NCBI GenBank assembly: GCA_963803185.1
Contig: CAWDMF010000023.1
Location: 14,034 to 78,033, forward strand
Source: an uncultured Gammaproteobacteria bacterium
GTDB taxonomy: Bacteria; Pseudomonadota; Gammaproteobacteria; SZUA-229
Length of the DNA: 64,000 bases
Direction: 5' to 3'
A program made the position numbers and the translations under genes. Below are positions 2,762 through 37,497 of the stretch, one piece after another. The number at the start of each line of letters is the position of its first letter. Position 1 is the first letter of the stretch. The notes beneath the pieces were generated by a model. The model worked only from the letters and a program-made list of their open reading frames with translations, searched no databases and had not been told where the DNA came from.

Positions 2762-2776
2762 TACTGGCAGTCTCCG

Positions 2777-5417: not shown

Positions 5418-5586
5418 GGTTTTGTCACATTAGCACAATATTTGCAAACACAAACATGATAGCAGATTACTATAAAACTAACCTGAATGTTGTTTACTCG
5501 ACAATCGGGTAGCAGGCAATAATTGATTGTCTCAATATTTATCATCTTGATGTAGGCAAAGGTTTCAGCAAAGAAAAAGAGGTACA

Positions 5587-7355: not shown

Positions 7356-7515
7356 GATTGTCTCCTGTTTATGTAAAGTACAGGATAATTTCAACATTAA
7401 ACAGCTGAACAACTGCTGAACGAAATAGAGTAAATCGGCAATATTTTAATATGTTACAGCTCAGATAAAATTTCAGGCTGAAATCGGTCATTAACGCTAG
7501 TACAAAAATAGCGTC

Positions 7516-7725
7516 AAAAACCTTCACCGCAGAGACGCAGAGGCGCAGAGGCGCAGAGGAAAATATTATATAGCAGGCAAAGATAAACAATAGTCTTGCC
7601 AGTAGTATTGACGTATGACTGCCAGTAACCTAACTTATGAAGATTAGCCTGTTGCGTAGCAAATATTATTGCTTGTGATCTTCTCAGCGCCTCGGCGTCT
7701 CTGCGGTGAAATGTTTTAAACTTTT
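7516..7725. repeat. Intergenic palindromic element, copy A (arms built of CGCAGAGG words)
   Basis: The left arm ttcaccgcagagacgcagaggcgcagaggcgcagagg (7523..7559) pairs with the right arm ...cagcgcctcggcgtctctgcggtgaa (7681..7710). The right flank is atgttttaaactttt. ORF 7369..7590 runs through it and is spurious. Confidence 0.8.
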
Positions 7726-7754
7726 CCGCCGTCCACTATGTGTCGTTTGTTTAC

Positions 7755-12266: not shown

Positions 12267-12291
12267 ACACCCTTTATTGATCTAAGCAAAA

Positions 12292-13698: not shown

Positions 13699-13705
13699 TG
13701 CCAAA

Positions 13706-15609: not shown

Positions 15610-15617
15610 CTCAATGA

Positions 15618-15647
15618 CTATGGACTGAAAGTCCATAGGTTGTTTTT
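15618..15647 (+). terminator. Rho-independent terminator after the amidotransferase gene
   Basis: ctatggact-gaa-agtccatag forms a 9-bp stem and is followed by gttgttttt. Confidence 0.6.
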
Positions 15648-15774
15648 AGAGCGATTGAAAATCACTTCTTGTGCCTGTCATCTCGACGGAGGGATAGCTA
15701 CAAGGCATGGATGTAGGTAAGGGGCGATAGCAGGATGCGGTAGCTTTTACTAGCGTACTGGGGCAATAAATTTT

Positions 15775-16248
15775 TTATAGTAGTAAATTTTTCTCTATTC
15801 GATGATAGATACTGGCTGCATCTATAAGTGAGCTGGCTGTAAGGGCCGGCACACCATATACTTCGGTTTCCACGGCATAGTCCGTACTGATTTTTTTCAA
15901 TAGCAGATCAAAGTCACCATCACCTGAAAGTAAAATTACGGTATCAATGTCTTTTGCGACTTGCATAACATCAATGGTGATGCCTACGTCCCAGTCGCCT
16001 TTGGCGGAACCATCGCTGCGCTGAATGTAAGGTTTTAGTTTTACATTAAAACCAATGTGTTTCAGGGCATCCTGAAATTTTTTCTGTTTGTCATCATCAC
16101 GATGAATGGCATAGGCATTGGCGACAACAATATCACCCTGTTTACTCACACGTTGCCAAAATTTGCGGTAATTAAACTGACAACCGTAGCTATCACGTGT
16201 TGTGTAATAAATATTTTGTACATCGACAAAAATTGCTATTTTTTTCAT
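15775..16248 (-). CDS. NYN/LabA-like (PIN-fold) nuclease-domain protein
   Basis: KIAIFVDVQNIYY...VILLSGDGDF are typical LabA/NYN signatures. Confidence 0.75.
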   Translation of the reverse strand: MKKIAIFVDVQNIYYTTRDSYGCQFNYRKFWQRVSKQGDIVVANAYAIHRDDDKQKKFQDALKHIGFNVKLKPYIQRSDGSAKGDWDVGITIDVMQVAKDIDTVILLSGDGDFDLLLKKISTDYAVETEVYGVPALTASSLIDAASIYHRIEKNLLL

Positions 16249-19678: not shown

Positions 19679-21052
19679 TTAAGCTGCATCTCGTGTGCGG
19701 TTCTGGTTGTTTGTACGCTTTTTCCAGACTGATGATTTTTTGTTACCACCCGTATTACCATTTGCATTCGTTTCAGCAGATTTTCTTCTGGCATTTTTTC
19801 CAGGTCGGGGTGATTTATTATTAGCCGGAGGTGCTGAATTTCTCCTGGAAGAGTTTCGTTGCTGACCATGGGCATTATTCCTGCCATTAGTTATTGGCTG
19901 CGCTTTGATAGAAGGATCAGGTTGATAACCTTCGATCACATCTTTCGGGATCTCACGTTTAATGAGTTTTTCGATGTCTTTGAGTAACTTCAGTTCATCA
20001 ATGCACACTAGTGACATAGCCTCACCTTCTTTACCCGCGCGACCGGTGCGACCAATACGGTGAACGTAATCTTCAGGCACATTAGGCAATTCAAAATTAA
20101 CCACATGTGGCAACTGGTCGATATCAATTCCGCGTGCCGCAATATCAGTTGCAACCAGGACACGTGTTAGACCGGCTTTAAAGTCGGCAAGTGCCCGTGT
20201 ACGGGCGCCCTGACTTTTGTTACCATGAATTGCAGCGGCGGTTATGCCATCTTTATTTAATTGCTCAGCAAGTCGGTTGGCACCGTGTTTGGTACGGTTG
20301 AAAACCAGCACCTGTTGCCAGTTATTAGATCCAATAAGGAAAGAGAGCAGTTCACGTTTACGTGTTTTATCGACCGGATGCACTACCTGTGTAACCGTTT
20401 CTGTTGCTGCATTTTGTCTTGACACTTCAATCAGTACTGGTGACTGCATCAGACCATTGGCAAGTTTTTTAATGTCATTAGAGAACGTTGCTGAGAATAA
20501 TAATGTCTGTTTCTTTTTTGGAACTAACGCCAGGACCTTTTTAATGTCGTGAATAAACCCCATGTCAAGCATACGGTCGGCTTCGTCGAGCACCAGGATA
20601 TCAACATTTGAAAGATCAACAGATCGCTGATTAACATGATCCAGCAAACGACCTGGTGTTGCGACCAGCACATCCACACCCTTGATGAGTTTCTGTTTTT
20701 GCGGATTGATGCTGACACCACCAAAAACCACGGTAGAGCGAAGCGGTAGATAACGCCCATAATCGCGTATGCTTTCTGCAACCTGTGCAGCAAGTTCCCG
20801 GGTTGGGGTTAACACCAGTGCGCGAACAGGTCGACGGCCTTTTCGTGGTTTATCGGTCTCTATCAAACGCTGTAATAAGGGCAGAGTAAAACCGGCAGTT
20901 TTACCGGTACCTGTCTGTGCACCACCCATAAGGTCGCGACCTTCCAGCACAACAGGAATTGCCTGTATTTGTATTGGTGTAGGGGTGTCGTAGCCTTTTT
21001 CAGATACAGCACGTTGTAATTCGGCCATCAGGCCGAGGGAATCAAATGACAT
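19679..21052 (-). CDS. rhlE: DEAD-box ATP-dependent RNA helicase RhlE
   Basis: [15 protein letters not shown] and [10 protein letters not shown] motifs, plus a basic Arg/Asn/Lys-rich C-terminal tail. Confidence 0.85.
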
Positions 21053-24134: not shown

Positions 24135-24694
24135 CAACTCAATATTATCAAGCGCACTATGCAGCTCATTTTCCAGTTCAAGTCTGTCACCTGGCTGATT
24201 TGACATGCCTGGATCATAAAATTGCAGCTGATTTCCACCTGCCTGTTTAGCTCGTTACATTGCAGTGCCTGCATTACGCAATAATATTAATGGTGTAACA
24301 CCATCTGTGGGATATACACGTATTCCTATGCTCGCACCTATGTGTATTTTATGTGAGTGAATGTCAAAAGAATCCGTTAAGCTGTGAATGATTTTATTTG
24401 TTACATAAACTGCTTCGCTATAACTTTTAAGTTTTTCTAGAACAATAACAAATTCATCTCCCCCATTACGAAAGACCGTATCATGGTTACGTAATGTTGT
24501 GTGTAATCGTGAAGCTACTTCCTGTAACAGCTTGTCACCGAAAATATGGCCCAAACTATCATAATGATTTTGAATCGGTCGAGATCAAGAAACAGAATAG
24601 CCATCTGCTATTCATCTCGTGCTGATATTTTAATAGATTGATTGATGCGATCAACAAGCAGGTTCTTATTTGGGAGACCGGTCAGTTCATCATG
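24135..24694 (-). pseudogene. Remnant of a GGDEF(-EAL) diguanylate cyclase gene
   Basis: The reading is [43 protein letters not shown], then a 1-nt gap, then DSLGHIFGDKLL...RNGGDEFVIVL...GASIGIRVYP...LLRNAGTAM*RAKQAGGNQLQFYDPGM...LELENELHSALDNIEL. It contains two nonsense codons and one frameshift. No sensor domain is present and the EAL domain is missing. Confidence 0.75.
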
Positions 24695-24718: not shown

Positions 24719-25420
24719 TTAATTGTCTACATCCATATCTTTAATCTGTTCAGGAAGATCCTTTACATTATCCTGCACCTGATCACCCATATCTATTGGA
24801 TTAGGAACCGTCACTTCCGGTGCAGTCCAGCCGCCTGGCATTTCACCCATGCGGCCTGGTGCGTTTATCATGTCATCCCAGCTGTTTTCCCAGTTACGCT
24901 TGCCTGGATTCATCCATGTGCTCGGACCGCTTCTTCCCCAGAACTTATTATTGTTCCAGCGTTTATTACGGCGATAATTGCGATTCGGATTATACCCCGG
25001 CATGCTATACGCTGAGGCGCCATTATCAGGGCCGTAATACGGTCTGCGTGGAGGTGGTGGAAAGCTTCTATTGGGTGGTGCCATGTTTGCATTAGGCCGA
25101 TCCATATTAGGTCGATTTACACCAGTATTTGCAGGACAGGGTGGCCTAAATGCGGGTCGCAGGTGGTGGTGTAAAATTTCTTGGCGGACGGGAATCAAGA
25201 GGTGCTCGATAAGCGTTATTACTTACTGGCCGCTCTGGTCGTGGTGGTGAATAAACAGGTGGTGCGGATCTGTCAGGCGATCGAAAATTAAAGTCAGGTG
25301 CCTGCCAGTAGCTATCACCGGGCTGTTCTGGCATCGCCTGTGATGATGCAAATACGCAAGTGCCGCTTAAAGCAACTACTGCACGGCTGCAACTGTAGAG
25401 GTAAAATATTTAGCTTGCAT
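24719..25420 (-). pseudogene. Gene for a secreted Pro/Asn/Arg-rich low-complexity protein, frame-disrupted twice
   Basis: ATG at 25420 (MQAKYF...). The signal-peptide continuation (..AVVALSGTCVFASSQA) lies in another frame across the homopolymer at 25403..25406. A second shift near 25148..25150 joins ...FTPPPATR to ..RPPCPANTGVNRPN.... The C-terminus is acidic (DLPEQIKDMDVDN). Confidence 0.55.
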
Positions 25421-25522: not shown

Positions 25523-26449
25523 TTATGGTTTCTTTGTATTTGATGATGAACCAAACCAGTCTGAAAATTTAAAATCACGTTTATATTCAATTTCTACCGG
25601 TGTTTCCAGCTTGGATTGAAGATGGTTTATATAGGTGGTCATGAAATGATTGCGTAAATTCTGCTCACTGGGAATGTCATTCAAAAAATCGACTGCACGC
25701 ATCATGCTATCCACACCCGTTAGTACCGCGTATTGATTATTCTCAAACAGCACAATTTCCGTTCCCTGATGCCAGAAAATGCTCAGCTTCATTAAATCTA
25801 AGGGATCAACTGGTGGTACCAGTGGCACCATATCTTTGGGTGTTACCAGTCGTTTAATATCCAGATGATTGAATTTTCGACTACCACTGACATTCGTCAC
25901 TTTTGGCTGACCAAATGTAATTACTTCGCCTACATCATATCCCTGTGCATCCAGCATCATGGCTAAAATGAGAGCCGCAGCGCCGCCCAGGCTGTGTCCA
26001 ATGGTATTTATTTTATATTGTGGCTTAATTTTGTCCTGGATCTGCTGGTAAATATCTCTTGCTGACAGCAAAAAACCCTGATGAATGTCGATACCTGAAA
26101 GTTTATCCGGTACTAATACAAAAGCAGCATCAACGACTGCGTTTTCAACATTGGATGTACCGCGTACAGCCAGGATATGTTGTTTGATACTGTCGTTTGT
26201 TGCCAGCACAAAGCCAACTGAATAACCTTCAATTTGTTGCTGCAGGGTTATCTTATACCCTTGTTTATGCAAAACATCAGTAAGCTCTGCTGTTGATTGA
26301 TATGTAGCCTCTGCAATAAAAGCTGCATTTAACCAGTGCGAGAAGTCTTTGGCTGAAAAGGTTTGCTGATTAGCCTGCGCGAAAGATAGCTGAGTAAAAA
26401 CCAGCAAGCTGAATAATAAAGATACAGAATGGTATTTTTTAAATCGCAT
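25523..26449 (-). CDS. Secreted class-3 (triacylglycerol-type) lipase family protein
   Basis: Signal MRFKKYHSVSLLFSLLVFTQLSFA from the ATG at 26449; nucleophile elbow GHSLGGAAA. Confidence 0.8.
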   Translation of the reverse strand: MRFKKYHSVSLLFSLLVFTQLSFAQANQQTFSAKDFSHWLNAAFIAEATYQSTAELTDVLHKQGYKITLQQQIEGYSVGFVLATNDSIKQHILAVRGTSNVENAVVDAAFVLVPDKLSGIDIHQGFLLSARDIYQQIQDKIKPQYKINTIGHSLGGAAALILAMMLDAQGYDVGEVITFGQPKVTNVSGSRKFNHLDIKRLVTPKDMVPLVPPVDPLDLMKLSIFWHQGTEIVLFENNQYAVLTGVDSMMRAVDFLNDIPSEQNLRNHFMTTYINHLQSKLETPVEIEYKRDFKFSDWFGSSSNTKKP

Positions 26450-26496
26450 AGTTTTGTTTTTTAACAGTAGGTTATTGTACATTTGAGTAGGTAATA

Positions 26497-26886
26497 TCAT
26501 GGTTGAATTGCTGGCTTAGCGGTCGCTTTTCGTAACAATGGGTTACAGTTTTTAATAGTTACCTGACCCTGTAATAAGTTGCCGCGTGAATATTCTCTGA
26601 AGTGGCAGGTATTGCTTAGCGGATTGTAATTTTCAATCCATAAATTATCATCTTTCCATGTGGCTGCCAGATGTAATTCATCATCAGGAATCTTGATTGT
26701 CATTACACCGCCATAACGTTTGACAAATACCTGCTGAAAGTGGAAATGGTAAGCCGCAAATCCAATCAGCATGATACTCACAGCAGCAATGGCCGCAATT
26801 TTCCACTGTTCTACTTTGTAACCGATGAAATAAAACAGGCCAAAAGCCAGTGCAATTATCGTGATCCAGTATAAATAGGTAACCAT
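26497..26886 (-). CDS. Small membrane protein with two TM helices, unknown function
   Basis: MVTYLYWITIIALAFGLFYFIGY...IAAIAAVSIMLIGFAAY. The listed longer ORF (to 26979) would read through a terminator hairpin, so I prefer the ATG at 26886. Confidence 0.5.
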   Translation of the reverse strand: MVTYLYWITIIALAFGLFYFIGYKVEQWKIAAIAAVSIMLIGFAAYHFHFQQVFVKRYGGVMTIKIPDDELHLAATWKDDNLWIENYNPLSNTCHFREYSRGNLLQGQVTIKNCNPLLRKATAKPAIQP

Positions 26887-26960
26887 GCGTGTGATCTTTA
26901 TTGGTAGAAATAGTTCGTAATAATATAGGTTTTTATCGCTGATAGAAAATTTATCTACTG

Positions 26961-26999
26961 AAAAACAAAAACCCGGCACGTTAAAAACGCACCGGGTTT
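26961..26999 (-). terminator. Rho-independent terminator after the lipoprotein gene
   Basis: On the minus strand, cccggugcg-uuuuuaa-cgugccggg forms a 9-bp stem including two G-U pairs, followed by tttttgttttt. Confidence 0.55.
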
Positions 27000-27019
27000 C
27001 AACAGTAGAAGCTTTGGTC

Positions 27020-28450
27020 TTAAGGTGTCACGGTAGGTGTAAAGACATGATCAAATGCCCCGGTCCAGTCAATACCGTTCGGATATACCGTGGTCAGGTA
27101 ATCGGCATTATTTAACTCAGCTGAGCGCCAGTCGAGCGGATCCGTACCCTGGTTTTCTTCCTGGCCGGCAAAACCGCCGATGAAATTATATACGGCATTT
27201 AACAGGTCGTTACAGTCATCACCGATAGCTGCGCATTTTGCTCCGGTAAAATAATCACTATCAAGGTTTAGCTCGGTAATGATTAGATCAAGCGAAGGAT
27301 TAAAAGGTAACAGCCAGCTGCCACCTGTTGCAGGTGTTGTACGATTACCTCGGTACTCGGATGTCAGCACCGATTTATTTATATATTCCCAGTCCATATC
27401 GTGCTCAAAGAAATAGACATCTTTTTTACTGAATAAATAATCGCCCAGGTGATTATTCAAGAAAACATTCAACACCAGTGGTAATGATATATTCTGAAAT
27501 TCAGCGATAGAGGCACCGTTACCCAGCGCATCAGAAACAGTGAATAAATGCAGATCAGGAATTTCAGTAATATTTGTCACCGGTAAAAATTGAGCTTTCA
27601 TATCAATCAAGCCACGGGCCTGGAAAACTTTTAACAGTGGATTGCCTGTCAGGTCTTTCACCAGCTGAATCCTAAAGCCATCTGCCCACAGGTTATTTTC
27701 GTCAAATTGCAGGAACATGTCTACCGTCTTCTGTTCGCTGGTAAAATTGAAATCCATGCGCATCATCGATGGATCTTCGCTATCATGGTTATCCCAGTTG
27801 ACACCAGTACCATCTATTATCATGCGGCCTTCGATATCACCATTCGCCAGTTCATTCCAGGAGATGTAAAACTGTGATTGCTCACCAGCAACGGGTGGCA
27901 GTGAACGGCTGTAATTATAATAAAGGCGAACGGTTACCTGGGTATCTGATTCGTCAGTGACACTGTAGTGGGTTGGTTCATCCGCTTCAAAATCTGCCGA
28001 ATTATTATCATTATCAGTTTCAATAATTTCGCCGTCATGCGGTACAAAACCGGAAACGTCAATTAATAAATCAGCAATACAGGTCCAGGTTGCCATGGTT
28101 GAAATCATAAATTTACTGGTTTCATATCCATTGCGGAAAGGATCGTCTTCATCTTCATTACCCAGATATGCACAGGGCTCACCCGTACCTGCCTTCGCCA
28201 TTTGTATTGACTGGCTTACCGTGGTCATGGCATTACTGGTTTGAGCCGCTTGTGTAACCGAAGCTGTTTGTCCGCCCGTCAGACTTGCAGGAATATCCAG
28301 AGCAAGTGTCGGATTACTGGCAGCAGAAGTGCCGCTGCTATCGCCATCGCAGGCTACAAGTAAACTGCTCAATAGCACTGCTGTAACAGCCAGTTTCGAT
28401 TTGAAATCCAGCCGGTTAAATATGTTCAATCGGATATTGTGGTTATTCAT
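27020..28450 (-). CDS. Lipoprotein of unknown function (476 aa)
   Basis: Lipobox LLVAC, SD GGAGAA, and no family that I can recognise. A copy of the locus-specific bipartite motif lies upstream. Confidence 0.6.
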   Translation of the reverse strand: MNNHNIRLNIFNRLDFKSKLAVTAVLLSSLLVACDGDSSGTSAASNPTLALDIPASLTGGQTASVTQAAQTSNAMTTVSQSIQMAKAGTGEPCAYLGNEDEDDPFRNGYETSKFMISTMATWTCIADLLIDVSGFVPHDGEIIETDNDNNSADFEADEPTHYSVTDESDTQVTVRLYYNYSRSLPPVAGEQSQFYISWNELANGDIEGRMIIDGTGVNWDNHDSEDPSMMRMDFNFTSEQKTVDMFLQFDENNLWADGFRIQLVKDLTGNPLLKVFQARGLIDMKAQFLPVTNITEIPDLHLFTVSDALGNGASIAEFQNISLPLVLNVFLNNHLGDYLFSKKDVYFFEHDMDWEYINKSVLTSEYRGNRTTPATGGSWLLPFNPSLDLIITELNLDSDYFTGAKCAAIGDDCNDLLNAVYNFIGGFAGQEENQGTDPLDWRSAELNNADYLTTVYPNGIDWTGAFDHVFTPTVTP

Positions 28451-28531
28451 CTTGTTTCTCCATTAATCTGGCTTATGCTTAAAGTATGATGCCAGCGAGT
28501 TTATGTTCGAGCTGTGTCGTTTTGTTCGATT

Positions 28532-28567
28532 ATTAAGAGACGGGTAATACAGCAGCATTTGAAAATT
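28532..28567 (-). promoter_or_regulatory. Bipartite motif copy 1 (AATTTTCAAAT-N15-GTCTCTTAAT), upstream of the lipoprotein gene
   Basis: The minus-strand reading is aattttcaaat gctgctgtattaccc gtctcttaat, about 80 nt upstream of the ATG at 28450. Confidence 0.55.
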
Positions 28568-28593
28568 ATTATGCATAAAAATAAGATAAATTT

Positions 28594-28630
28594 AATTTTC
28601 AAATAAAACAGTTCTGTGTGTCTCTTTAAT
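28594..28630 (+). promoter_or_regulatory. Bipartite motif copy 2, immediately upstream of the M48/TPR gene
   Basis: aattttcaaat aaaacagttctgtgt gtctctttaat, ending 2 nt before the ATG at 28633. Confidence 0.55.
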
Positions 28631-28632
28631 AT

Positions 28633-30624
28633 ATGAGACTTACAACGGCTTTATTTAATGATATGAAAAACCATATGAAACAGTTGTTTACAATCGGCGG
28701 CAGGCTTTTTCTCATGTTACTGTGCTTTAGCGCTGCAAGTCATAAGGTTGTTTATGCTGATCAGGTTTCCCTGATTCCGCCTGCCGATCCGAAACAGTCG
28801 ATTACTTACTGGAAAAAATATACCCTGGCGGACAGCAGCCCGTTAGTTCAGCACTCACAACAGGTTTTTTCGGTATTGCTGCGCGCATGGGACCAGTCAC
28901 GTATCGAACCGGGTCTGTTTGTTGTTGAATCAGAAGCCGGAGCATGGGCAGCTTCGCTGGCTGATGGAAATATTTTATTAAGTAAGCAGGCTATAGAAAC
29001 CAGCTTTTCCTTTGGTCGCCAGCGCGGTGAACATTTGCTGGCATTTATACTGGCACATGAACTGGCGCATCAGCGAGCTGATGATTTATGGCATCAGCGT
29101 TTCTTCCGGATGATTGGTAAACATTCTGCCGAATCCCGTAAGAAAATGATGGCAGGACTGGAACTGGATGCAGACATGTTAAACCAGATGGAGCAGAAAG
29201 AAGCTCAGGCTGACCATGACGGGCTTGTCTTAATGGCCAGCGTTGGCTTTGACCCGCACCAGGTAGTTGGCGACCAGCTTGCAGAGCAGAATGATGGCGA
29301 TAGAGACTTTTTCACCTTATGGGTTGAAAATATCTGGCATCAGGGCTGTGTAGAAAGCAATACAGACAACAGTAATTATGATGCCTGCGAACAGGCAATG
29401 GCACGGGCATTAAGAACCCAGGCACAACTTAAAACAGTCGCAACACAGTCCATGCTTTACGAACTGGGTATCCAGTCATTTGTAGCCGGAAACTATCAAC
29501 AGGCAAGAGAATACTTCACTATCTATGGGCGAGATTATCCCGGCAGGGCAATCATCTCAGCTATAGGTTTAAGCTATTTTGCTCAGGCGCAGGGTATCCA
29601 GAAACAAATCAATGAACTTGCCGCCAGCACCGGTGAAAATCAGCAGGCAAAATCACAGCTGTTTGATTTTTACTACCCGATGATTCTTGATGCACAAGTT
29701 AACGGTAGTAATTCAGCATCATCAGACAATAAACGCGCCAGTGCAACAGCGCTGATTGCCGAGTTAAAGAAACAAAAAGCTAAATTACTAGACCAGGGTA
29801 TCAGTCAGTTTGAAAAGGCCATTCGGCTGGCGCCGGATTATCAGCAAACCTACCTGTTGCTGGCTTCAGCACACCTGCTGGCCAATAATTCGTATCGAGT
29901 TCGCGGTGTACTGCAGGGTCAGTATTTACCAAAATTCGGTGATGACAGCGGGGCAAACATGCTGCTGGCGTTGACAGCGGCAATTGAAGGCAAGACAACT
30001 CAGGCAATTGCACAGCTAAGCGAGCTGACGGAAAAAATCAAAAATAGCAAAGCAGTTTCATCATTACCGGATAATGTGCTGGCTTACAGCGCTTTTTATA
30101 ACCTTGCTGAATTATATAGGGCAACGGGTAAAACACAGCAGGCGAAAAAAGTCTGGAGGGATCTTGCTCAATATTCCGGAAAAAACGGCGATACACTATT
30201 ATTCCGCCTGGCAATAAACCGTATCAACAAAAATGCTACGCTATCGACAAAACAGTTAACACAGGCACCATTAATCAATGGCAAAAGGCTGGGTGACAAA
30301 ATCCAGTTTGAAAAACAGCCGTCCGACTTATGGATAGACGGCGAGCGCTATCATATAAGCACAGTTAAAAACACACGTTATATCACACAGGATGACGGTA
30401 CACTCATCAGTGCCTGGCAAAACGATACCATATCTTCGGCCAGCCAGATAAGCGGTAAGCTAAGCATTGGTGATTTTGCAGACCGTCCATTCAAAACGCT
30501 GGGCATTCCTGATCGTCGCTTAAACATGACATCAGGCGAGTACCTGGCTTATGACAATTACGGCCTGGCCGTTCGAATCAGTAATAATCAGGTAAAAGGG
30601 TGGTTTTTATATGATGCTCAGTAA
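28633..30624 (+). CDS. BepA-like periplasmic M48 zinc metalloprotease with TPR repeats
   Basis: A signal peptide, HELAH (HExxH) followed by ...EAQADHDGLVLMASVGFDP, and then TPR-like helical repeats. The start may be an internal ATG at 28663 or 28675. Confidence 0.7.
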   Translation: MRLTTALFNDMKNHMKQLFTIGGRLFLMLLCFSAASHKVVYADQVSLIPPADPKQSITYWKKYTLADSSPLVQHSQQVFSVLLRAWDQSRIEPGLFVVESEAGAWAASLADGNILLSKQAIETSFSFGRQRGEHLLAFILAHELAHQRADDLWHQRFFRMIGKHSAESRKKMMAGLELDADMLNQMEQKEAQADHDGLVLMASVGFDPHQVVGDQLAEQNDGDRDFFTLWVENIWHQGCVESNTDNSNYDACEQAMARALRTQAQLKTVATQSMLYELGIQSFVAGNYQQAREYFTIYGRDYPGRAIISAIGLSYFAQAQGIQKQINELAASTGENQQAKSQLFDFYYPMILDAQVNGSNSASSDNKRASATALIAELKKQKAKLLDQGISQFEKAIRLAPDYQQTYLLLASAHLLANNSYRVRGVLQGQYLPKFGDDSGANMLLALTAAIEGKTTQAIAQLSELTEKIKNSKAVSSLPDNVLAYSAFYNLAELYRATGKTQQAKKVWRDLAQYSGKNGDTLLFRLAINRINKNATLSTKQLTQAPLINGKRLGDKIQFEKQPSDLWIDGERYHISTVKNTRYITQDDGTLISAWQNDTISSASQISGKLSIGDFADRPFKTLGIPDRRLNMTSGEYLAYDNYGLAVRISNNQVKGWFLYDAQ

Positions 30625-30687
30625 GGTATCTCAACAAATATTCACTACACTCAGTGATAATGATAATAACTGCTTACAGGACTTATT

Positions 30688-31629
30688 TTGCCCTTATCAG
30701 CCAATCCGCCGGTCAGTACTTCACAGCGCAACAGTGAAAATATCGAGCTCGCAAAAAAAGCGGCAAATAATGACGCGCAAGCACGAATAGAGGTTAATGA
30801 TTTAATTGCCCCCATAATCCAGTACCAGACAAACCGGTTCTGTAAACGGTTTTGCAAAGAAAACAGCGCCCATTATAAATGCACATTAAAACCGCCGCTT
30901 GGCTCGCCGCCTGCCGATGCCAGTTTATGCGAATGGGGTAACGGCTGTTACACATGGATGCTGGAAGATTTAAGCAGCAGCAAACGGCTGTTGAAATATC
31001 AGGCAAAAAACAATGCAACATTATTTGATTACTGTTATGTCATCGCCAATTCACTGCCATTTTATGAACGCTGGAAAGACTGGCGTTTTGCTCGAAAAAA
31101 TTATGTTCCAAGTTATATTCAGTCGCTGGGTAAAGCAGCTGTCTCTGTTTTTTATGGCCTGCAATCGCAGCACAGCATTGAACAAATCAGTCAGGCTTCA
31201 GCGCAAACTGTCCTGGAAAGTACCGAACTTAGCCGAAACATCATTCGTTTACTAAGCTCAAGGAGCAAGTTGCATCTCCTGAACCGGCCACACAGTGTTT
31301 CGTTCACACAGGATAATGATGTTGCCGAAGATGTATGGCAAGGGCCGTCAAATATCGAGTCAGAAACAGCAAGCCATGATGAAGCAATAGAGTTACGGGA
31401 AGATAAACAGAAACTGAAGAAAGCGTGGCACGAATTATCGGCTGTTGAACAATTTGTAATTGAAGCCCTTGTTATTGAAGAACAGGAGGCACAAATTGTT
31501 TTAGCGGCACTAAGAACATTAAACCTGAGCATTAAACAGGGGGTTCCTGCAGGTGAGACTGATCGACAGCAATTATATTATTTCCGCAGAAAAACGCTGG
31601 CAAAACTGAATGCCTTGATGAAGAAATGA
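30688..31629 (+). CDS. Atypical ECF-like sigma-70 family factor with a Cys-rich insertion
   Basis: The region-4-like C-terminus is LSAVEQFVIEALVIEEQEAQIVLAAL...QLYYFRRKTLAKLNAL. The region-2-like N-terminus is split by CKRFCKENSAHYKCTLKPPLGSPPADASLCEWGNGC. A zf-HC2 anti-sigma gene follows. The only in-frame start candidates are TTG at 30688 and CTG at 30670. Confidence 0.55.
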   Translation: MPLSANPPVSTSQRNSENIELAKKAANNDAQARIEVNDLIAPIIQYQTNRFCKRFCKENSAHYKCTLKPPLGSPPADASLCEWGNGCYTWMLEDLSSSKRLLKYQAKNNATLFDYCYVIANSLPFYERWKDWRFARKNYVPSYIQSLGKAAVSVFYGLQSQHSIEQISQASAQTVLESTELSRNIIRLLSSRSKLHLLNRPHSVSFTQDNDVAEDVWQGPSNIESETASHDEAIELREDKQKLKKAWHELSAVEQFVIEALVIEEQEAQIVLAALRTLNLSIKQGVPAGETDRQQLYYFRRKTLAKLNALMKK

Positions 31630-31646
31630 ATATAAGACTGTTAAAT

Positions 31647-31682
31647 AATTTTCAAATATTTTTACAGTTGTTGTCTCTTAAT
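31647..31682 (+). promoter_or_regulatory. Bipartite motif copy 3, immediately upstream of the anti-sigma gene
   Basis: aattttcaaat atttttacagttgtt gtctcttaat, ending 4 nt before the ATG at 31687. Confidence 0.55.
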
Positions 31683-31686
31683 CAAC

Positions 31687-32685
31687 ATGAACAGCAAAGG
31701 TAATACTATGACGTCTCAGCATATCGATAATGACACTTTAAGTCTGTTTGTAAAAATGACCTTATATCCGCACGATCACAGCATGAACAGTTCGCAATAT
31801 CATGCGGTACTCGATCACCTTGCCCATTGCGAAGAATGCCGGGACCAGGTAAGCATAATCACCACCCTGCATAAAGAATGGCAGCAGATGGATATCCATG
31901 CCGATCTCAGTGATGAAAAGCAACAGCTAATCTGTGATTACCTGGATGGAAATTTAACTGCAGAAGAGGCCAGCAAAACTAAAAAGCTGATTAACAGTCA
32001 CCCTGATGCAATGAAAGCGGCATTACATTACAGCAGCCATGCTCAGTCCATGAAAGCACAATTAACTGACAACCAGCAATCAGTTTCAAGCGCACAATCT
32101 GCGAACAAAACCAGTGATCAAAGCTTTGTTCCCCACCTGACATCATTCGTAAAACGTTTATTCAGCTTTCAATCACCACTGGTTTACACCATGACTGCGA
32201 CCGCGGCTGTTTTTGTTGCGGTACTGTTATTTGTGCAATCGACTGAAATTAATCAAACCATGATTGCAAGTTACCAGGATAACCCAACGATTCAGTTTAC
32301 AGACAAAAACAAATTGCCGGGCATTGGTTTTTTCGCTAAATCGATGGATTCTTCAAAGTCTTTTGAGAATGTTAATATTGAACTGATTTCAGAAAACAGG
32401 ATAAAAATATCATGGCCGGCAGTTGCTGGCGCTGAACTTTATAAAATGCGAATCCAGGTTTTTAATCAGGGCAAGAAAACTGTTTTAAAAGAGAAAACAA
32501 CCCATACCAATCACACCACCTTTGAATTAAGTCAAGAGCTTCCTGTAGTAAAACAGGACAAGCATAATAAACGTTACGAATGGGTGTTATATGGCAATAC
32601 AGAAGATGACCGTATGTTTTATGCTTCTGGAGGTTTTGTTGTAGACCAGGTTCATGCTAATTCTGACTGGGAAGCCGGCTGGTAA
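31687..32685 (+). CDS. Zinc-finger (zf-HC2/ZAS-type) transmembrane anti-sigma factor with an extracytoplasmic beta-rich domain
   Basis: H-x3-C-x2-C in DHLAHCEEC; a single TM (LVYTMTATAAVFVAVLLFV); a C-terminal FN3-like segment (ISWPAVAGAELYKMRIQVF...). Confidence 0.7.
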   Translation: MNSKGNTMTSQHIDNDTLSLFVKMTLYPHDHSMNSSQYHAVLDHLAHCEECRDQVSIITTLHKEWQQMDIHADLSDEKQQLICDYLDGNLTAEEASKTKKLINSHPDAMKAALHYSSHAQSMKAQLTDNQQSVSSAQSANKTSDQSFVPHLTSFVKRLFSFQSPLVYTMTATAAVFVAVLLFVQSTEINQTMIASYQDNPTIQFTDKNKLPGIGFFAKSMDSSKSFENVNIELISENRIKISWPAVAGAELYKMRIQVFNQGKKTVLKEKTTHTNHTTFELSQELPVVKQDKHNKRYEWVLYGNTEDDRMFYASGGFVVDQVHANSDWEAGW

Positions 32686-32705
32686 TAATTTTATGGTGAA
32701 AAAAG

Positions 32706-33758
32706 ATGCTTAATACAGATATTACATACCTTGCCGGAATAAAAAGATATTGCAGAATCGCAATGCTGGTCTCACTTGGCATTTTCTGCATGTTCTCGAG
32801 TAATGCTTATGCTGCTGATAGTCGGGGCATTGCTATACAGCCAATAGACAAGTCGGCAAAGCCGGCAGCCACAAACGGCATTTATCGTGCGCTTGTTATC
32901 GGAAATAATGACTACATGGATGAGAAAGGTAAATGGAAGTCACTAAGTACTGCGGTTGCTGATGCAAGGGCGGTTGCTGACCTGCTTAAGAAGCAGTACG
33001 GCTTTACTGATATTAAGCTGCTTGAAAATGCTACTCGGCGCGATGTGCTGATCGCACTGGAAGATCTGGGCAGAAAATCCTTAAAAAATGATAATGTTTT
33101 AATCTATTATGCCGGTCATGGTTTTCTTGACGATGAGACCAATAAAGGCTTCTGGGTTCCGGTTGATGCCAGCGGCAGTGACCATACAACGTTTTTACGT
33201 AATTCTACTATTCGAGACGAAGTTTCAGGCATCGCTGCTCGTGTGAAACACACCTTACTTATTTCTGATTCATGTTTTAGCGGTTCTTTATTAAGAACTG
33301 CATCACGTGGAATATCAGAATCTGAATACACCGAAAAATATTTCAAGAAAGTATCAAGCAAGAAAAGTGTGCAAATAATGGCAGCCGGCGGATTTGAGTT
33401 TGTTGACGATGATTACCGCGATTCAGGTCATTCGCCTTTTACTTATTTCCTGCTGAATGAATTGAAAACTAATGACAGCCCGATGTTTACCGTTAGCCAG
33501 CTTTCCGGAAATGTTGAACGTGCAGTTGCAAATAATGTTGAACAGGTCCCAGAAAGCGGCGTATTGCAAGGCGCCGGCGATGAATTAGGTGAATTCATTT
33601 TTATTAAACTGGATGTTGCCGTCGAAGGCATCGATCCTGAAAAAGTAAAAGTTGAGGTCAATGTCGTGCCCGCAGATAAGACGCAAACAGACAATGCAAT
33701 AAAAGTTAGAAAACAATCAGACAAACAAATCAAAGTTGTGCCGATACCAACCTTGTAG
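32706..33758 (+). CDS. Secreted caspase-family (peptidase C14) protease
   Basis: Signal ...SSNAYA; YRALVIGNNDY; catalytic His in IYYAGHG and Cys in LISDSCFSG; a ~90-aa C-terminal tail. Confidence 0.85.
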   Translation: MLNTDITYLAGIKRYCRIAMLVSLGIFCMFSSNAYAADSRGIAIQPIDKSAKPAATNGIYRALVIGNNDYMDEKGKWKSLSTAVADARAVADLLKKQYGFTDIKLLENATRRDVLIALEDLGRKSLKNDNVLIYYAGHGFLDDETNKGFWVPVDASGSDHTTFLRNSTIRDEVSGIAARVKHTLLISDSCFSGSLLRTASRGISESEYTEKYFKKVSSKKSVQIMAAGGFEFVDDDYRDSGHSPFTYFLLNELKTNDSPMFTVSQLSGNVERAVANNVEQVPESGVLQGAGDELGEFIFIKLDVAVEGIDPEKVKVEVNVVPADKTQTDNAIKVRKQSDKQIKVVPIPTL

Positions 33759-33770
33759 AAGGATAGCATT

Positions 33771-34502
33771 ATGTTAGCAAGAAATATTTCACTCGTAATA
33801 TTAGCTTTATCACTCAGCATAAGTCATCTACATGCCGAGCAAAGCCTGACTTTAGGTGCAAAATTACTGGGCGCAGGCTGGAATGGAGACAATGGTACCG
33901 GCGGCAGCGAGTTTGGAAGTGACAAGGGTGGCCAGTTCGGTGTAAATATATCTTACAAAATCGGCCGTTTCTACACTGGCTTAAATCTACAACGCGGCAA
34001 ATATGAATTTACCGGCAATGCGCCAGACAAGTTTATACAACCCAATCTCTTTGTGCCTGACGGGCGCCTGTCCAGCTCAAATGTTACCATCCAGCAATCT
34101 GATTTTGATTTACTGGCGGGTTATTATTTCTGGGATCAGGTGTCATTGTTTATTGATGTTAAAGCGGTAACTAACGACTGGCTCGATCAATCTTACAGCC
34201 AGACTTTTGTTGGACTCGGTCTGGGCATATCAGGTTACATACCACTGAATAACCGCTGGACACTTTTTGGCTCTTTCGGTTTTATCGGCGGTGGTGATAT
34301 AAAAGATAATAATGATAACAAAGTAGGGGAAGGTAAAAGCTGGGCACTGGAAGCAGGTACGGTTTATACAATTAACGAACGGCACTTTATCAATGGCGGA
34401 CTAAAAACAAGAGAGTATGATTTTGAAGACCTGAACTCTATAAAGCAGAGTTATAACATTAATGCGTTGTTTATCGGCTATAACTACAGCTTCAGTTTAT
34501 AA
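33771..34502 (+). CDS. Putative outer-membrane beta-barrel protein
   Basis: A signal peptide (..SISHLHA), alternating amphipathic strands rich in G/Y/N, and an aromatic-rich C-terminus ...LFIGYNYSFSL. Confidence 0.5.
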   Translation: MLARNISLVILALSLSISHLHAEQSLTLGAKLLGAGWNGDNGTGGSEFGSDKGGQFGVNISYKIGRFYTGLNLQRGKYEFTGNAPDKFIQPNLFVPDGRLSSSNVTIQQSDFDLLAGYYFWDQVSLFIDVKAVTNDWLDQSYSQTFVGLGLGISGYIPLNNRWTLFGSFGFIGGGDIKDNNDNKVGEGKSWALEAGTVYTINERHFINGGLKTREYDFEDLNSIKQSYNINALFIGYNYSFSL

Positions 34503-34530
34503 CCGTTTTGTTTATCAAGTTGCAATAATC

Positions 34531-35022
34531 ATGCTGCATAAAGCTTTTTATTTTATCGTACTTTTGTTGTTAGCTACGGCATGTTCCTTATCCACTGAAA
34601 CCCATTCATCTCTCGCGTTGCAAACTATTCCAGTTGAGTTAACAACACATTTAGGTGACCAGCAGCAGTTTATCGACGGTGATGAAATTCAGTTTTTATT
34701 AAGCCTTGGCAGTGATGCATACATCTATATGTATTACATCGATGCCGCTAATAAGATTACAAAAATACTGCCAAATGAAAACCAGCACAGTCATTTTTAT
34801 TCGGCCGGCTATTTTCTGACCGTACCAAATTACGAAAATCATTACCGGTTTATAATCAGCAGGCCATACGGCGAAGAAACCATTTGGATATTTGCAAGCG
34901 ACCAGTCGATTAATATCAACGAGACGAACATTGGAATAGACGAGATAAGAAATAATATAAAAAACGCATCAAGACTTGCATATGGTGAATATGCGATGAA
35001 AATAGTGACGCGTGATAGATAG
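34531..35022 (+). CDS. DUF4384-like lipoprotein
   Basis: ATG at 34531 with lipobox LLATAC. The core GDEIQFLLSLGSDAYIYMYYIDAANKITKILPN...ETIWIFASDQ resembles DUF4384. Confidence 0.6.
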   Translation: MLHKAFYFIVLLLLATACSLSTETHSSLALQTIPVELTTHLGDQQQFIDGDEIQFLLSLGSDAYIYMYYIDAANKITKILPNENQHSHFYSAGYFLTVPNYENHYRFIISRPYGEETIWIFASDQSININETNIGIDEIRNNIKNASRLAYGEYAMKIVTRDR

Positions 35023-35037
35023 TTATTAACAGTACTC

Positions 35038-35143
35038 ATGAACAGGATACCCTTTATTCAAGACCGTCAGCTGCAGGGATGCAGCTGTCGAGCCTATATG
35101 GACATATTCACGGCACGTCTTGAATAAAGGGTATCCTGTTCAT
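35038..35143. repeat. Perfect 27-bp inverted repeat enclosing smaller hairpins
   Basis: atgaacaggataccctttattcaagac (35038..35064) is the exact reverse complement of 35117..35143. The inner hairpin is cagctgca-ggga-tgcagctg. Confidence 0.9.
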
Positions 35144-35271
35144 CTGACTCAGTAATAATAACTGGCCAGCATAAAAACAGATTCATCAAAACATTTTTCA
35201 CTGACTTCAAATATGTAAACTTCTTTTTTCACTATGATATCTAACCTGGTTAATTTGTTAATTAATTATAT

Positions 35272-36144
35272 TCACGGGGCCAGTCGGGCAGTACCCAGTT
35301 GTACACCTAACGGACCGCGCGGTACGGTAAAGCTATAAATTTCACCATTTCGATATATGTTGATAGGAACAAATTCGCCCAGCTGACCTTCGGTGGTCGC
35401 ATCTTTAAGTTCCTGCCAGCTAAACATGCGTTTATTATCATAACTTAAAACAACATCACCTTTTTGTAAACCAGATTGTTCCGCTGCAGAACCCAACATA
35501 ACGGATGCAATTTTAATGCGATTATTTTGCTTAGTCGCGTACAGATATTCATCATATCTTTCATCACCTAACTCTTCTCTTAAGTTGACATCCTGCTGGT
35601 TGATATTCTCCAGCTCATCATAATACCGTTGTGTGTTTAAGTAGTTATCTCTTTTAGCCCGATCCTGCAATTCAAGCCTTTTTAATTCAATACTGTTTTT
35701 TCTACGGACAATATCTTCAGCTACAGGTGTGGCGATACCTCCTTTTATTAAACTCTCAAGGTTATACTGCCGCTGAGGGAGATATGAAAGTGAGGGCTTC
35801 CCGGTTATTTTTACTGGATTTATTGAACTGGGTGCCGTCTCTGGCATGGTCGCTAATACCTGCTTAATTTCTTTTAGTTGCAGTTTAATTTGAGATAATT
35901 CATCATCAAAATAATCAAGACGATTACGATCTACATTATTGTTAATAGCAGGATTGCTATGATCAGGATTATCCTTTTTTTCTACAAAAGGGTTGGCCCT
36001 GGAAAGGCTATCAGTTACTTTTTTTTCATTATTGTTTTTTGAAACGAAATTATTCTTATTTGTATTTTCACCAAAAATAATATAAGCAGAAATAAAACCA
36101 ATCAATAGAAATACGACGGGGATTATTATGCTATTTTTCTGCAT
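35272..36144 (-). CDS. Membrane-anchored PDZ-domain protein
   Basis: N-terminal TM, a coiled-coil-like middle, and a C-terminal PDZ (GSAAEQSGLQKGDVVLSYDNKRM...). Confidence 0.65.
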   Translation of the reverse strand: MQKNSIIIPVVFLLIGFISAYIIFGENTNKNNFVSKNNNEKKVTDSLSRANPFVEKKDNPDHSNPAINNNVDRNRLDYFDDELSQIKLQLKEIKQVLATMPETAPSSINPVKITGKPSLSYLPQRQYNLESLIKGGIATPVAEDIVRRKNSIELKRLELQDRAKRDNYLNTQRYYDELENINQQDVNLREELGDERYDEYLYATKQNNRIKIASVMLGSAAEQSGLQKGDVVLSYDNKRMFSWQELKDATTEGQLGEFVPINIYRNGEIYSFTVPRGPLGVQLGTARLAP

Positions 36145-36186
36145 GATGGGCCTGGGTATTTATTTCGTATGAATCATTACCGATAA

Positions 36187-37497
36187 TCAGGTATTATTTT
36201 TTGAACGGTCTTTTTCAGACGGTTTTCTTCGTTTGCCAATATTTTTTTTATCTCGTAATCTCTTTTTTATTTTGCTTTTTTCTTTTTTTGCCGGTTTCAA
36301 TTTTTTTCTTTTTGCACCATAAGCTTTACCTGAAGTCTTTTTATTTTCTGGCCCTTTAAATTTTGCAGCAAGTGATTTGATTTTAAGCTCAGTACATTCA
36401 ACCTGTAAAAAATTTTCAATACCAATCATTTTGTTCCATTCCTGAGAATTAACAAGTGTAATCGATGTCCCGGTATCAAACATCCTTCCCGTGCGGCCAA
36501 TACGGTGCATATAATCTTCAGCATTACGGGGCACATTAAAATTAACAATCAAATCGAGGTCATTTATATCCAGGCCGCGTGATGCAACATCTGTTGCAAC
36601 GATAATATTAATGTCGTTATTTCTAAATTTTCGCAACATATCGTTGCGCCTATCCTGTTCGACATCACTATGTAGAACCGCCGATTTTATGTTTTTTGAC
36701 TGTAACCAGCCACTTATTCTGTTCACCGTTTCTTTTTTATTGGCAAAGACGATAGCTTTTGTATAGTTAATATGCTGTTCTTCTATACTAAGAAGATGTT
36801 GACAGATATCAAGCTTATGTTCATCATTATCTGCAAGCATTTTATGCTGCTTGATGTTCTGATTATTTTCCCTGGCACTATGAATCAGGATTTTTTCTGC
36901 TTCGAATAAAATAATATCCGTCAGGTCTTTAAATTTATTTTCATTAAAACTGGCGGAGAAAAGCAGTGTTTGGCACTCTTCATTGCACTGACCTGCAATG
37001 CTTATCACTTCATCACTAAAGCCCATATCAAGCATTCGGTCTGCTTCATCTATTACTAATATACTGATTGCATCAAGGTCGATAACTTCACGTTTAACAT
37101 GTTCTAATAAACGTCCAGGTGTCGCAACGATGATGTCCGGGTAGCGTTGCAATGCTTTTAACTGGTGTTTAGGGTCTTCACCTCCGATAATAATAGCGGT
37201 TTTAATTTCTGTATATTGCGAGAGTAAACTACATTGTTTATTGATCTGGCGGCATAATTCTCGCGTTGGAGCCAAAATTAAAGCCTGCGTCACACTTTGC
37301 GGGTTATCCAGTATTTGTTGCAGTATGGGTAAAACATAAGCCAGCGTTTTACCGCTACCTGTTTTTGCATTAACAATCAGGTCTTTTCCTGCAAGCGCCT
37401 GGGGAATTGCAGTGGCCTGAACCTCTGTCATTTTCTCAAAGCCGAGAAATGCAAGTGCATTCAGCAGTGGTTCATCAAGTGATAGTTTAGAAAACAA
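36187..37497 (-). CDS. DEAD-box ATP-dependent RNA helicase (SrmB-like) with a Lys-rich tail
   Basis: AKTGSGKT, DEAD, SAS and HRIGRTGR motifs; TTG start. Confidence 0.85.
   Translation of the reverse strand: MFSKLSLDEPLLNALAFLGFEKMTEVQATAIPQALAGKDLIVNAKTGSGKTLAYVLPILQQILDNPQSVTQALILAPTRELCRQINKQCSLLSQYTEIKTAIIIGGEDPKHQLKALQRYPDIIVATPGRLLEHVKREVIDLDAISILVIDEADRMLDMGFSDEVISIAGQCNEECQTLLFSASFNENKFKDLTDIILFEAEKILIHSARENNQNIKQHKMLADNDEHKLDICQHLLSIEEQHINYTKAIVFANKKETVNRISGWLQSKNIKSAVLHSDVEQDRRNDMLRKFRNNDINIIVATDVASRGLDINDLDLIVNFNVPRNAEDYMHRIGRTGRMFDTGTSITLVNSQEWNKMIGIENFLQVECTELKIKSLAAKFKGPENKKTSGKAYGAKRKKLKPAKKEKSKIKKRLRDKKNIGKRRKPSEKDRSKNNT

Follow-up and report, generated by a model that had tools for sequence, protein, structure and literature searches.

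A conserved gene module linking a divergent, probable sigma-70-family protein and its proposed anti-sigma partner to an exported caspase-like protease in uncultured bacteria, mostly Gammaproteobacteria

We analyzed a 64,000-nt stretch of DNA from an uncultured gammaproteobacterium (GenBank assembly GCA_963803185.1, contig CAWDMF010000023.1, positions 14,034 to 78,033), hereafter referred to as the window, in which an earlier note had described a seven-gene envelope module with a sigma/anti-sigma pair and a secreted caspase-like protease. A six-frame list of open reading frames (ORFs) reproduced the coordinates and all gaps of that description, with six genes on the plus strand, separated by 63, 57, 20, 12, and 28 nt, and one divergent gene on the minus strand. 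In plus-strand order, the genes encode an exported M48-like zinc metalloprotease with TPR repeats (663 aa; 28633–30624; assigned from motifs, Pfam, orthologs, and export signals), a putative divergent sigma-70-family protein (313 aa, TTG start; 30688–31629; from a structural model, Foldseek, and remote homologs), a single-pass transmembrane zf-HC2 anti-sigma factor of the ZAS type with an HxxxCxxC motif (31687–32685; from Pfam and alignment), an exported C14 caspase-like protease of the orthocaspase type with a C-terminal tail (32706–33758; from Pfam, alignment, and gene fusions), a putative outer-membrane beta-barrel protein that bears a signal peptide and is assigned to the OMP_b-brl type (243 aa; 33771–34502; from Pfam matches of orthologs and export signals), and a DUF4384 protein (34531–35022; from Pfam and export signals). 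The minus-strand gene (27020–28450; from the ORF list) encodes a 476-aa lipoprotein whose family has no match. As had been proposed, all five non-regulatory products appear to be exported, with N-terminal hydrophobic signal segments in at least 85% of the orthologs of each. A hairpin resembling an intrinsic terminator (15-bp stem followed by a T run; minus strand, 26968–27000) lies directly 3′ of the lipoprotein gene, which identifies this gene as a monocistronic unit. The base composition of the region is unremarkable.

Scanning one genome per species with an alignment of the sigma family yielded 68 loci, every one of them from a metagenome-assembled genome (MAG); a cultured host was thus not found among these 68 matches. 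Synteny was assessed by tblastn of the window proteins against the loci, of which 31 had enough flanking sequence to be evaluable. Of these 31 loci, which come from different orders, 26 have all seven genes colinear, with gene order and orientation preserved, and the expectation that the gene set would be syntenic in related genomes was thereby borne out. The four flanking genes (lipase, small membrane protein, PDZ protein, and DEAD-box helicase) are kept only in the six closest relatives, indicating that the seven genes form a unit that moves or persists together. Median ortholog identity is highest for the caspase (61%) and the lipoprotein (55%), followed by the sigma-like protein (49%), the M48-TPR protease (45%), the barrel (40%), the DUF4384 protein (39%), and the anti-sigma factor (30%). 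Neither profile libraries nor the literature turned up a characterized operon of this make-up, in agreement with the earlier note, and the literature on DUF4384, on caspases and orthocaspases, and on sigma and ECF (extracytoplasmic function) factors contained no description of the cluster. We regard it as very likely that the genes constitute a real, conserved, sigma/anti-sigma-linked envelope module.

Most hosts are bins of Gammaproteobacteria (Thioalkalispiraceae, Chromatiales, Acidiferrobacteraceae, Thiohalomonadales, Ectothiorhodospiraceae, and Pseudomonadales, as well as the Olavius Gamma 3 symbiont), mainly of sulfur-cycling sediment and vent lineages, and a few bins are labeled Desulfobacteraceae, Desulfosarcinaceae, Nitrospira, or Manganitrophaceae. 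A cyanobacterial host, ‘Kaarinaea lacus’ (locus L072; GCA_975955295.1, CDLSDW010000237.1), was rejected, the contig being probably a contaminant from an associated bacterium; it is 7.4 kb long and carries the anti-sigma, caspase, barrel, and DUF4384 genes at about 60% identity to the gammaproteobacterial versions. In a scaffold of the Olavius algarvensis Gamma 3 endosymbiont (L068, 10001–10435), the sigma homolog matches residues 5–149 only. Downstream module genes were not detected in this locus or in L057, and the cluster may be disrupted or decaying in both.

The module genes share a promoter-like motif. In k-mer counts over 43 orthologous divergent intergenic regions, TTTGAA turned up in 41 of the regions and TTCAAA, its reverse complement, in 40 (null maximum about 20), while AAGAGAC turned up in 21 (null maximum 12). 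At 47 of 56 loci, TTCAAA also lies between the sigma and anti-sigma genes. In this gap, the sense strand reads TTTTCAAAT, followed by 15 nt and GTCTCTT, a few bases before the coding start. An arrangement of face-to-face promoters, in which ATTTGAAAA would be a −35-like element directed across the intergenic region, was rejected because this gap shows the bipartite TTCAAAT-N15-GTCT on the sense strand. A relaxed pattern scan over all loci then gave 152 matches at three syntenic positions, 146 of them with an identical 25-nt geometry, which is kept 5′ of the lipoprotein gene in 36 loci, 5′ of the M48-TPR gene in 53, and 5′ of the anti-sigma gene in 60; the 143 matches elsewhere in the loci, taken as background, are evenly spread over spacings of 24, 25, and 26. 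The consensus, tttTTCAAAT-N15-tGTCTnTT, has a −35/−10 type layout with a GTC-type −10 element as is common for ECF sigma factors. The entire window contains the motif with the cluster spacing at only three sites, all reading TTCAAAT-N15-GTCT: P_lipo, 5′ of the lipoprotein gene (minus strand, 28538–28562), P_M48, 5′ of the M48-TPR and sigma genes (plus strand, 28599–28623), and P_antiS in the sigma/anti-sigma gap (plus strand, 31652–31676). A fourth match, one base shorter and located in the M48-TPR coding region, looks like chance. As the ATGs of the longest ORFs for M48-TPR and the anti-sigma factor lie only 6–9 nt past the −10 element, the true starts of both must be located downstream, probably at M11 (28663) or M15 for M48-TPR. 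It follows from the sequence that the module would comprise three transcription units under one promoter type.

The motif accompanies the sigma/anti-sigma pair into variant clusters with other target genes (L043, L060, L062, and L065). In the L043 variant (12108–16139), caspase and barrel give way to a 220-aa protein of unknown family, a lytic transglycosylase (MltC-like, SLT), and a 757-aa protein with DUF4384 at its end; the sigma and anti-sigma genes and the shared promoter motif still lie upstream, and the lytic transglycosylase hints at a link to peptidoglycan. The L060 variant (1943–7832) encodes a fusion of caspase and FGE-sulfatase (589 aa), a 719-aa DUF4384 protein, and M48-TPR; it lies on the strand opposite the sigma/anti-sigma pair and is headed by the shared promoter motif at 7812–7836 (minus strand). 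DUF4384 and a caspase are found in L062, and a beta-helix/Lcl_C protein in L065. This joint occurrence indirectly supports the view that the motif is read by the cluster’s own sigma, which, judging from these comparisons, probably drives all three promoters. The proposal of a private sigma/anti-sigma pair is strengthened, since a single motif precedes all three units and follows the sigma gene into the variant clusters.

The 313-aa protein has 493 homologs in a large protein collection, none of them annotated and none with a Pfam domain. An AlphaFold model built from 32 sequences (mean pLDDT 79.7) shows three helical domains and a disordered linker, arranged as a sigma-2-like domain with an insert of four cysteines (Cys4), a middle helical domain, the linker, and a sigma-4-like domain. 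When the model was compared with the PDB by Foldseek, the top 50 matches were all sigma factors (SigD, SigB, sigma-32, sigma-S, FliA, WhiG, and primary sigmas), which cover the full length of the protein with E-values from 7.9e-4 upward and a probability of 1.0 for the best matches; the C-terminal domain superposes on sigma-4 of Mycobacterium tuberculosis SigL (3hug_E) with a TM-score of 0.77 and an rmsd of 2.1 Å. An exhaustive profile search of 1.84 billion representatives (50% identity) found only 135 proteins at E ≤ 1e-3, showing that this is a small family, separate in sequence from mainstream sigma factors. A remote tier of proteins of about 320 aa carries the classic N-terminal GDxxAxxxF sigma-2 motif and matches Pfam Sigma70_r4 or r4_2, two of them above threshold (P0330, 34.5 bits; P0348, 29.3 bits). 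From the model and these relatives, we conclude that the 313-aa protein is most plausibly a sigma-70-family member of a divergent, unannotated subfamily; it fails sequence profiles for sigma-70 and passes only by structure and via remote homologs. As is typical of an ECF context, its gene is immediately followed by that of a zf-HC2 anti-sigma factor, and P_M48, which precedes the M48-TPR/sigma unit, contains a GTCT −10-like element. In place of the two-domain ECF architecture (sigma-2 and sigma-4, about 170–220 aa), both model and alignment show an extra helical domain (142–191) and a 22-residue Cys4 insert. With its three domains, the protein is not a classical group-4 (ECF) member and is ECF-like in partner and promoter only, so that from the earlier designation as an atypical ECF-like sigma factor the sigma fold stands and the ECF architecture does not. 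The cysteines of the insert, C52, C56, C65, and C81 (CxxxC...C...C; window 30841–30933, residues 52–81), are invariant, with a related pattern (C...C...CxxC) in part of the remote relatives, and may form a metal or Fe-S site. One ORF of 580 aa in a Nitrospirota MAG covers both the sigma-like and the anti-sigma homolog (L061:2153–3892), which may reflect either a genuine fusion of the two or an artifact of assembly or frameshift.

The anti-sigma factor matches Pfam zf-HC2 at 9.9e-6 (26.0 bits; gathering score 22.2), and H37-x3-C41-x2-C44 (numbered from M8) is invariant in 39 sequences. M8 at 31708 is the probable true start, with AAAGG as ribosome-binding site; on a 98%-identical contig, the gene was called with 325 aa, which is consistent with this start. 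Downstream of the zinc motif come another conserved helix (ALKAALHYASH), a hydrophobic span, and, in the periplasm, a beta-rich domain that bears the motifs PGIGFF, RYEW, and SGGF, of which GFF, W, and GG are invariant. This layout, with HxxxCxxC in the N-terminal anti-sigma domain and a transmembrane segment behind it, is that of class-I/ZAS anti-sigma factors, and the identification as a transmembrane zf-HC2 anti-sigma factor was upheld by the Pfam score, the invariant motif, and the hydrophobic span.

The caspase-like protease matches Pfam Peptidase_C14 at 2.4e-22 (80.2 bits; gathering score 21.4) and aligns to the structure of Geobacter GSU0716 (PDB 3bij) and to metacaspase-4 across the YxGHG and SDSCxSG motifs. 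Its catalytic dyad, His138/Cys190, is kept in at least 95% of 49 orthologs; likewise, HELAH of the M48-TPR protease as well as YYAGHG and SDSCFSG are all present and each conserved in at least 95% of 49–58 orthologs. Pfam, alignment, and export signal thus agree on a signal-bearing C14 caspase with an intact dyad, as the note had stated. Asp188 stands at position −2 of the catalytic Cys, as in Arg/Lys-specific metacaspases, and from this residue the caspase probably cleaves after Arg/Lys. The NCBIfam model of the EACC1-associated caspase (NF047832) gave 75 bits for the protein, below the cutoff of 140. Just after the predicted signal-peptidase site, the sequence SRGI (32820–32831, residues 39–42) is nearly invariant and could be an autoprocessing or docking site.

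For the barrel, Pfam gave no match with the window protein; 21 of 32 orthologs match OMP_b-brl (PF13505; best 2.6e-10) and 46 of 48 have a signal segment, so that the putative outer-membrane beta-barrel finds its support at the ortholog level. In three loci, caspase and barrel form a single ORF of 545–563 aa (L036:12017–13678, L040:12050–13687, and L058:11896–13587; bins labeled Desulfobacteraceae, Desulfosarcinaceae, and Pseudomonadales). These fusions drop the signal peptide of the barrel and join the two parts by a linker of about 20–25 residues, indicating that caspase and barrel work together and that the caspase is tied to the outer membrane. The window barrel ends in FSL, whereas two of the three fusions, L036 and L040, have the canonical Phe as their last residue. 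In even-stranded barrels, both termini face the periplasm, and the simplest reading is therefore a periplasmic caspase on the inner face of the outer membrane.

In the M48-TPR protease, H142, E143, H146, E190, A193, and D194 (H142ExxH146 and E190xxAD194) are invariant in 38 orthologs, of which 35 match Peptidase_M48 at E ≤ 0.1 (best 2.9e-5). Several TPR models of Pfam match the protein (TPR_14 at 23.9 versus 23.5), the family profile matches consensus-TPR and OGT TPR structures, and the repeats are followed by a conserved C-terminal domain of about 110 aa. The comparison with BepA made at the outset therefore holds for the M48 motifs and the TPRs and goes no further than those. The DUF4384 protein matches PF14326 at 1.1e-16 (61 bits; gathering score 27). 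Its description as a DUF4384 lipoprotein is correct with respect to the family, and the lipobox exists here and in close relatives (13 of 42), whereas more distant orthologs are plain secreted proteins.

For the 476-aa lipoprotein, 338 homologs with 55–80% identity were found, none of them annotated, and its status as a divergently transcribed protein without recognizable family was retained, as neither Pfam nor NCBIfam gave a match. Its lipobox Cys33 is embedded in a lipobox conserved in 30 of 37 orthologs, and the protein carries four conserved Cys residues. In the structural model (pTM 0.71), the disordered tether is joined by a helix of 26 residues, some 12 long antiparallel strands, and C-terminal helices; Foldseek found no matching fold in PDB or BFVD, and the porin-like and tail-protein folds considered were rejected as noise (best E-values 0.15 and 0.02, TM < 0.25). 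Within the otherwise variable, low-confidence tether, IPxSLTGG is conserved (minus strand, 28274–28300, residues ~51–59). Position +2 after the lipobox Cys is Asp in the window lipoprotein and Gly, Ser, Asn, or Ala in most orthologs.

The surroundings of the module consist of housekeeping genes, including two DEAD-box helicases, RapA, an acyltransferase, an enoyl-CoA hydratase, a class-3 lipase, and a PDZ protein. Three of the genes around the module, the two DEAD-box helicases and the RNA polymerase recycling ATPase RapA, are found at 19679–21052, 36187–37497, and 38091–40985. A low-complexity ORF of 159 aa rich in Pro, Asn, and Arg (minus strand, 24719–25198) adjoins a truncated GGDEF-like ORF (24255–24554). 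The window contains no tRNAs, Rfam gave no match within 26000–36500, and a scan for sigma-70 promoters returned no more sites than expected by chance.

Taken as a whole, we cautiously favor the reading that the cluster is a self-contained, autoregulated module for cell-envelope signaling and proteolysis. The single-pass ZAS-type anti-sigma factor would hold the dedicated three-domain sigma inactive; once released, the sigma would direct RNA polymerase to the cluster-specific promoter type TTCAAAT-N15-GTCT and thereby to three units, i.e., (i) the 476-aa lipoprotein alone, (ii) the M48-TPR protease and the sigma, providing positive feedback, and (iii) anti-sigma, caspase, barrel, and DUF4384 protein, providing negative feedback and effectors. 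The periplasmic caspase would be tethered to the inner face of the outer membrane via the barrel, non-covalently here and covalently in the three fusion orthologs, with the DUF4384 protein as its partner, adaptor, or substrate, and the output would be proteolytic remodeling of envelope proteins by the tethered caspase. The anti-sigma factor might be inactivated from the periplasm by a site-1 cut through a co-encoded protease and subsequent housekeeping intramembrane proteolysis, or by another route, thiol or metal chemistry at the ZAS and Cys4 sites. Destruction of the anti-sigma factor set off by a co-encoded protease is possible, if doubtful.

Several observations weigh against this reading. 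The sigma-like protein has no match in Pfam, NCBIfam, a PDB phmmer search, or a PDB family-profile search, and hhalign of the sigma family with E. coli FliA and RpoE was not significant, the FliA alignment falling on regions 2.2–2.4; the Foldseek E-values of the model are modest (best 7.9e-4), and its global TM-scores are low. Peptidase_M48 matches the window protein at E = 0.034 with 14.4 bits, below the gathering score of 20.3. The motif could be read by another host sigma, and the 476-aa lipoprotein, the most conserved cargo-like component, has no assignable activity. Finally, we infer both the periplasmic rather than surface exposure of the caspase and the trigger, substrates, and physiological role of the module.

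A bolder version of the mechanism, to which we assign a low probability, is a protease-gated sigma switch of a new type that acts across the envelope. As site-1 protease, the periplasmic caspase, tethered to the outer membrane and partnered by DUF4384 for recognition, would cut the periplasmic domain of the anti-sigma factor on a specific envelope cue, releasing a new-class three-domain sigma in which a metal or Fe-S center at Cys4 provides a second checkpoint, located in the cytoplasm. In type III-E CRISPR systems, caspase-like Csx29 cleaves Csx30, which releases an RpoE-containing complex, and the C-terminal domains of some Csx30 proteins are DUF4384 (bioRxiv 10.1101/2022.08.17.504292). If true, the switch would mirror Craspase-Csx30-RpoE signaling in the periplasm and provide exported bacterial caspases with their first physiological role.

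Other explanations were weighed against the same data. It is very improbable that the 313-aa protein is another kind of helical DNA-binding regulator, with the motif as its operator or as an element read by a host sigma. Such a regulator would agree with the failure of sigma-70 sequence profiles to match the protein and with the middle domain of the remote relatives, which matches GerE or sigma-4-type helix-turn-helix models found in ordinary regulators too. It is at odds with the fold matches, since all top 50 are sigma factors with full-length coverage, with a partner that is a class-I anti-sigma-domain protein, and with the motif itself, which is of the fixed-spacing −35/−10 type with an ECF-like GTCT −10, a few bases 5′ of coding starts. 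Caspase-like proteases also recur in defense systems, and the caspase matches the generic caspase model of PADLOC (3.3e-13), as would be expected for an anti-phage or abortive-infection system in which infection triggers the sigma and the caspase dismantles the envelope or activates a toxin. The parallel with Craspase, Csx30, and RpoE points in the same direction, and pairs of ECF sigma and anti-sigma factors such as DdvS/DdvA control defense islands (PMC11506125). However, the other six module proteins match no PADLOC model, the flanks are housekeeping genes rather than a defense island, searches of viral contigs and plasmids found no copies, and all effectors appear to be periplasmic; the median identities of caspase (61%) and lipoprotein (55%) and the rigid gene order across orders are also unlike fast-turnover defense loci. 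A phage-defense island is thus unlikely, and we give the system as a whole only a slight chance of serving defense; the envelope dismantling upon stress or phage attack suggested in the earlier note received no support, and the PADLOC, viral-contig, and plasmid searches revealed no defense or mobile context.

Two further explanations, neither of which we consider likely, concern the function of the exported proteins. The module might be a machine dedicated to maturing or anchoring a surface protein, either the 476-aa lipoprotein or a different one, with the outer-membrane-tethered clan-CD protease as a processing or sortase-like enzyme, the M48-TPR protein as chaperone-protease, DUF4384 as adaptor, and the sigma/anti-sigma pair only setting expression. 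PorU is such a processing or sortase-like clan-CD enzyme of type IX secretion, and TPR-M48 proteases such as BepA act on substrates of outer-membrane biogenesis. The lipoprotein, as the most conserved cargo-like component, shares the promoter, its long disordered tether holds a conserved linear motif, and the caspase is physically tied to an outer-membrane barrel, all of which would suit a maturation machine. On the other hand, no conserved Arg/Lys site was seen in the tether, surface exposure has no support, and L043, L060, and L062 lack the lipoprotein yet keep sigma, anti-sigma, and DUF4384. Alternatively, the ZAS zinc site of the anti-sigma factor or the Cys4 insert of the sigma might sense thiol oxidation, sulfide, or metals in the cytoplasm, with the exported proteases as repair and quality-control outputs of a redox- or metal-sensing stress regulon, for which RsrA/SigR and CorE2 are thiol- and metal-sensing precedents. 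This would be in line with HxxxCxxC being invariant in the anti-sigma factor, with the four Cys being invariant in the sigma and related patterns occurring in remote relatives, and with hosts that belong for the most part to sulfur-cycling Gammaproteobacteria of sediments and vents; metal sensing by Cys-rich extensions of ECF sigma factors is known as well (PMC7826278). The conserved periplasmic domain of the anti-sigma factor argues instead for an extracytoplasmic input. Moreover, most zf-HC2 anti-sigma factors are not redox sensors.

The autoregulated envelope module, as favored here, would have several implications. A sigma family missed entirely by curated profiles implies that censuses based on Sigma70_r2/r4 are incomplete, and since comparative genomics yielded the cognate promoter motif directly, the sigma, the anti-sigma factor, and the promoter lend themselves to testing or to reuse as an orthogonal genetic switch. 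To our knowledge, almost no physiological roles have been assigned to bacterial orthocaspases. The exported caspase gains defined partners (barrel anchor, DUF4384, M48-TPR, and ZAS anti-sigma factor), i.e., a short list of candidate substrates and regulators. If the caspase gates the release of the sigma, envelope signaling would be tied to the caspase/DUF4384/sigma logic of type III-E CRISPR. The module is possibly a novel means for bacteria to link proteolysis in the envelope with the control of genes. Its hosts, uncultured sulfur cyclers living in sediments, at vents, and in symbioses, are abundant, and the module may matter for their envelope biology.

Among known systems, ECF envelope modules, orthocaspases, BepA-type proteases, and the logic of Craspase are the closest kinds, and none of them is a match; the module holds an unrecognized sigma subfamily and a highly conserved lipoprotein without assignment. 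With RpoE-RseA-DegS/RseP and SigW-RsiW-PrsW, it shares a sigma gene beside that of a single-pass HxxxCxxC anti-sigma factor, a local regulon, an apparently autoregulated promoter with an ECF-like GTCT −10, and periplasmic proteases encoded alongside. It differs from them in a sigma of 313 aa with three domains and a Cys4 insert that is missed by Sigma70_r2/r4, in a −35 element that reads TTCAAAT instead of GGAAC, in a promoter copy of its own for the anti-sigma factor, and in its proteases, which are a C14 caspase and an M48-TPR protein rather than DegS or PrsW types and for which cleavage is only proposed. The caspase resembles orthocaspases such as Microcystis MaOC1 and Geobacter GSU0716 in its C14 domain, its His/Cys dyad, and an Asp two residues before the Cys, and the association with DUF4384 and, in the L060 variant, with FGE-sulfatase is typical of the family, whereas the signal peptide, the outer-membrane barrel as partner or fusion, and the private sigma/anti-sigma pair set it apart. 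BepA (YfgC), a periplasmic M48 protease with TPRs, differs from the 663-aa protein found here, which has an extra conserved C-terminal domain, a co-transcribed sigma gene, and weak similarity to the M48 profile (14.4 bits versus a gathering score of 20.3).

A sigma factor beside genes of caspase-superfamily proteases is also found in ECF54, for which conserved neighboring CHAT protease genes and regulation by proteolysis have been described or proposed (PMC8999054). ECF54, however, has no anti-sigma factor and is partnered with CHAT, carboxypeptidase, and subtilase, whereas an anti-sigma factor is present here and the sigma lies outside ECF profiles. Compared with the type III-E Craspase (Cas7-11, TPR-CHAT Csx29, Csx30, Csx31, and RpoE), the module has an exported caspase with a link to the outer membrane, carries its TPRs on the M48 protease and not on the caspase, has a ZAS transmembrane protein as anti-sigma factor, and shows no homology to Csx30 or Csx31; neighboring genes and PADLOC revealed no CRISPR, cas, or csx genes near the module, and there was no RNA family match. 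What both have in common is a clan-CD protease, TPRs, DUF4384, and an inhibited sigma and, as proposed here, the logic of a protease-gated sigma release.

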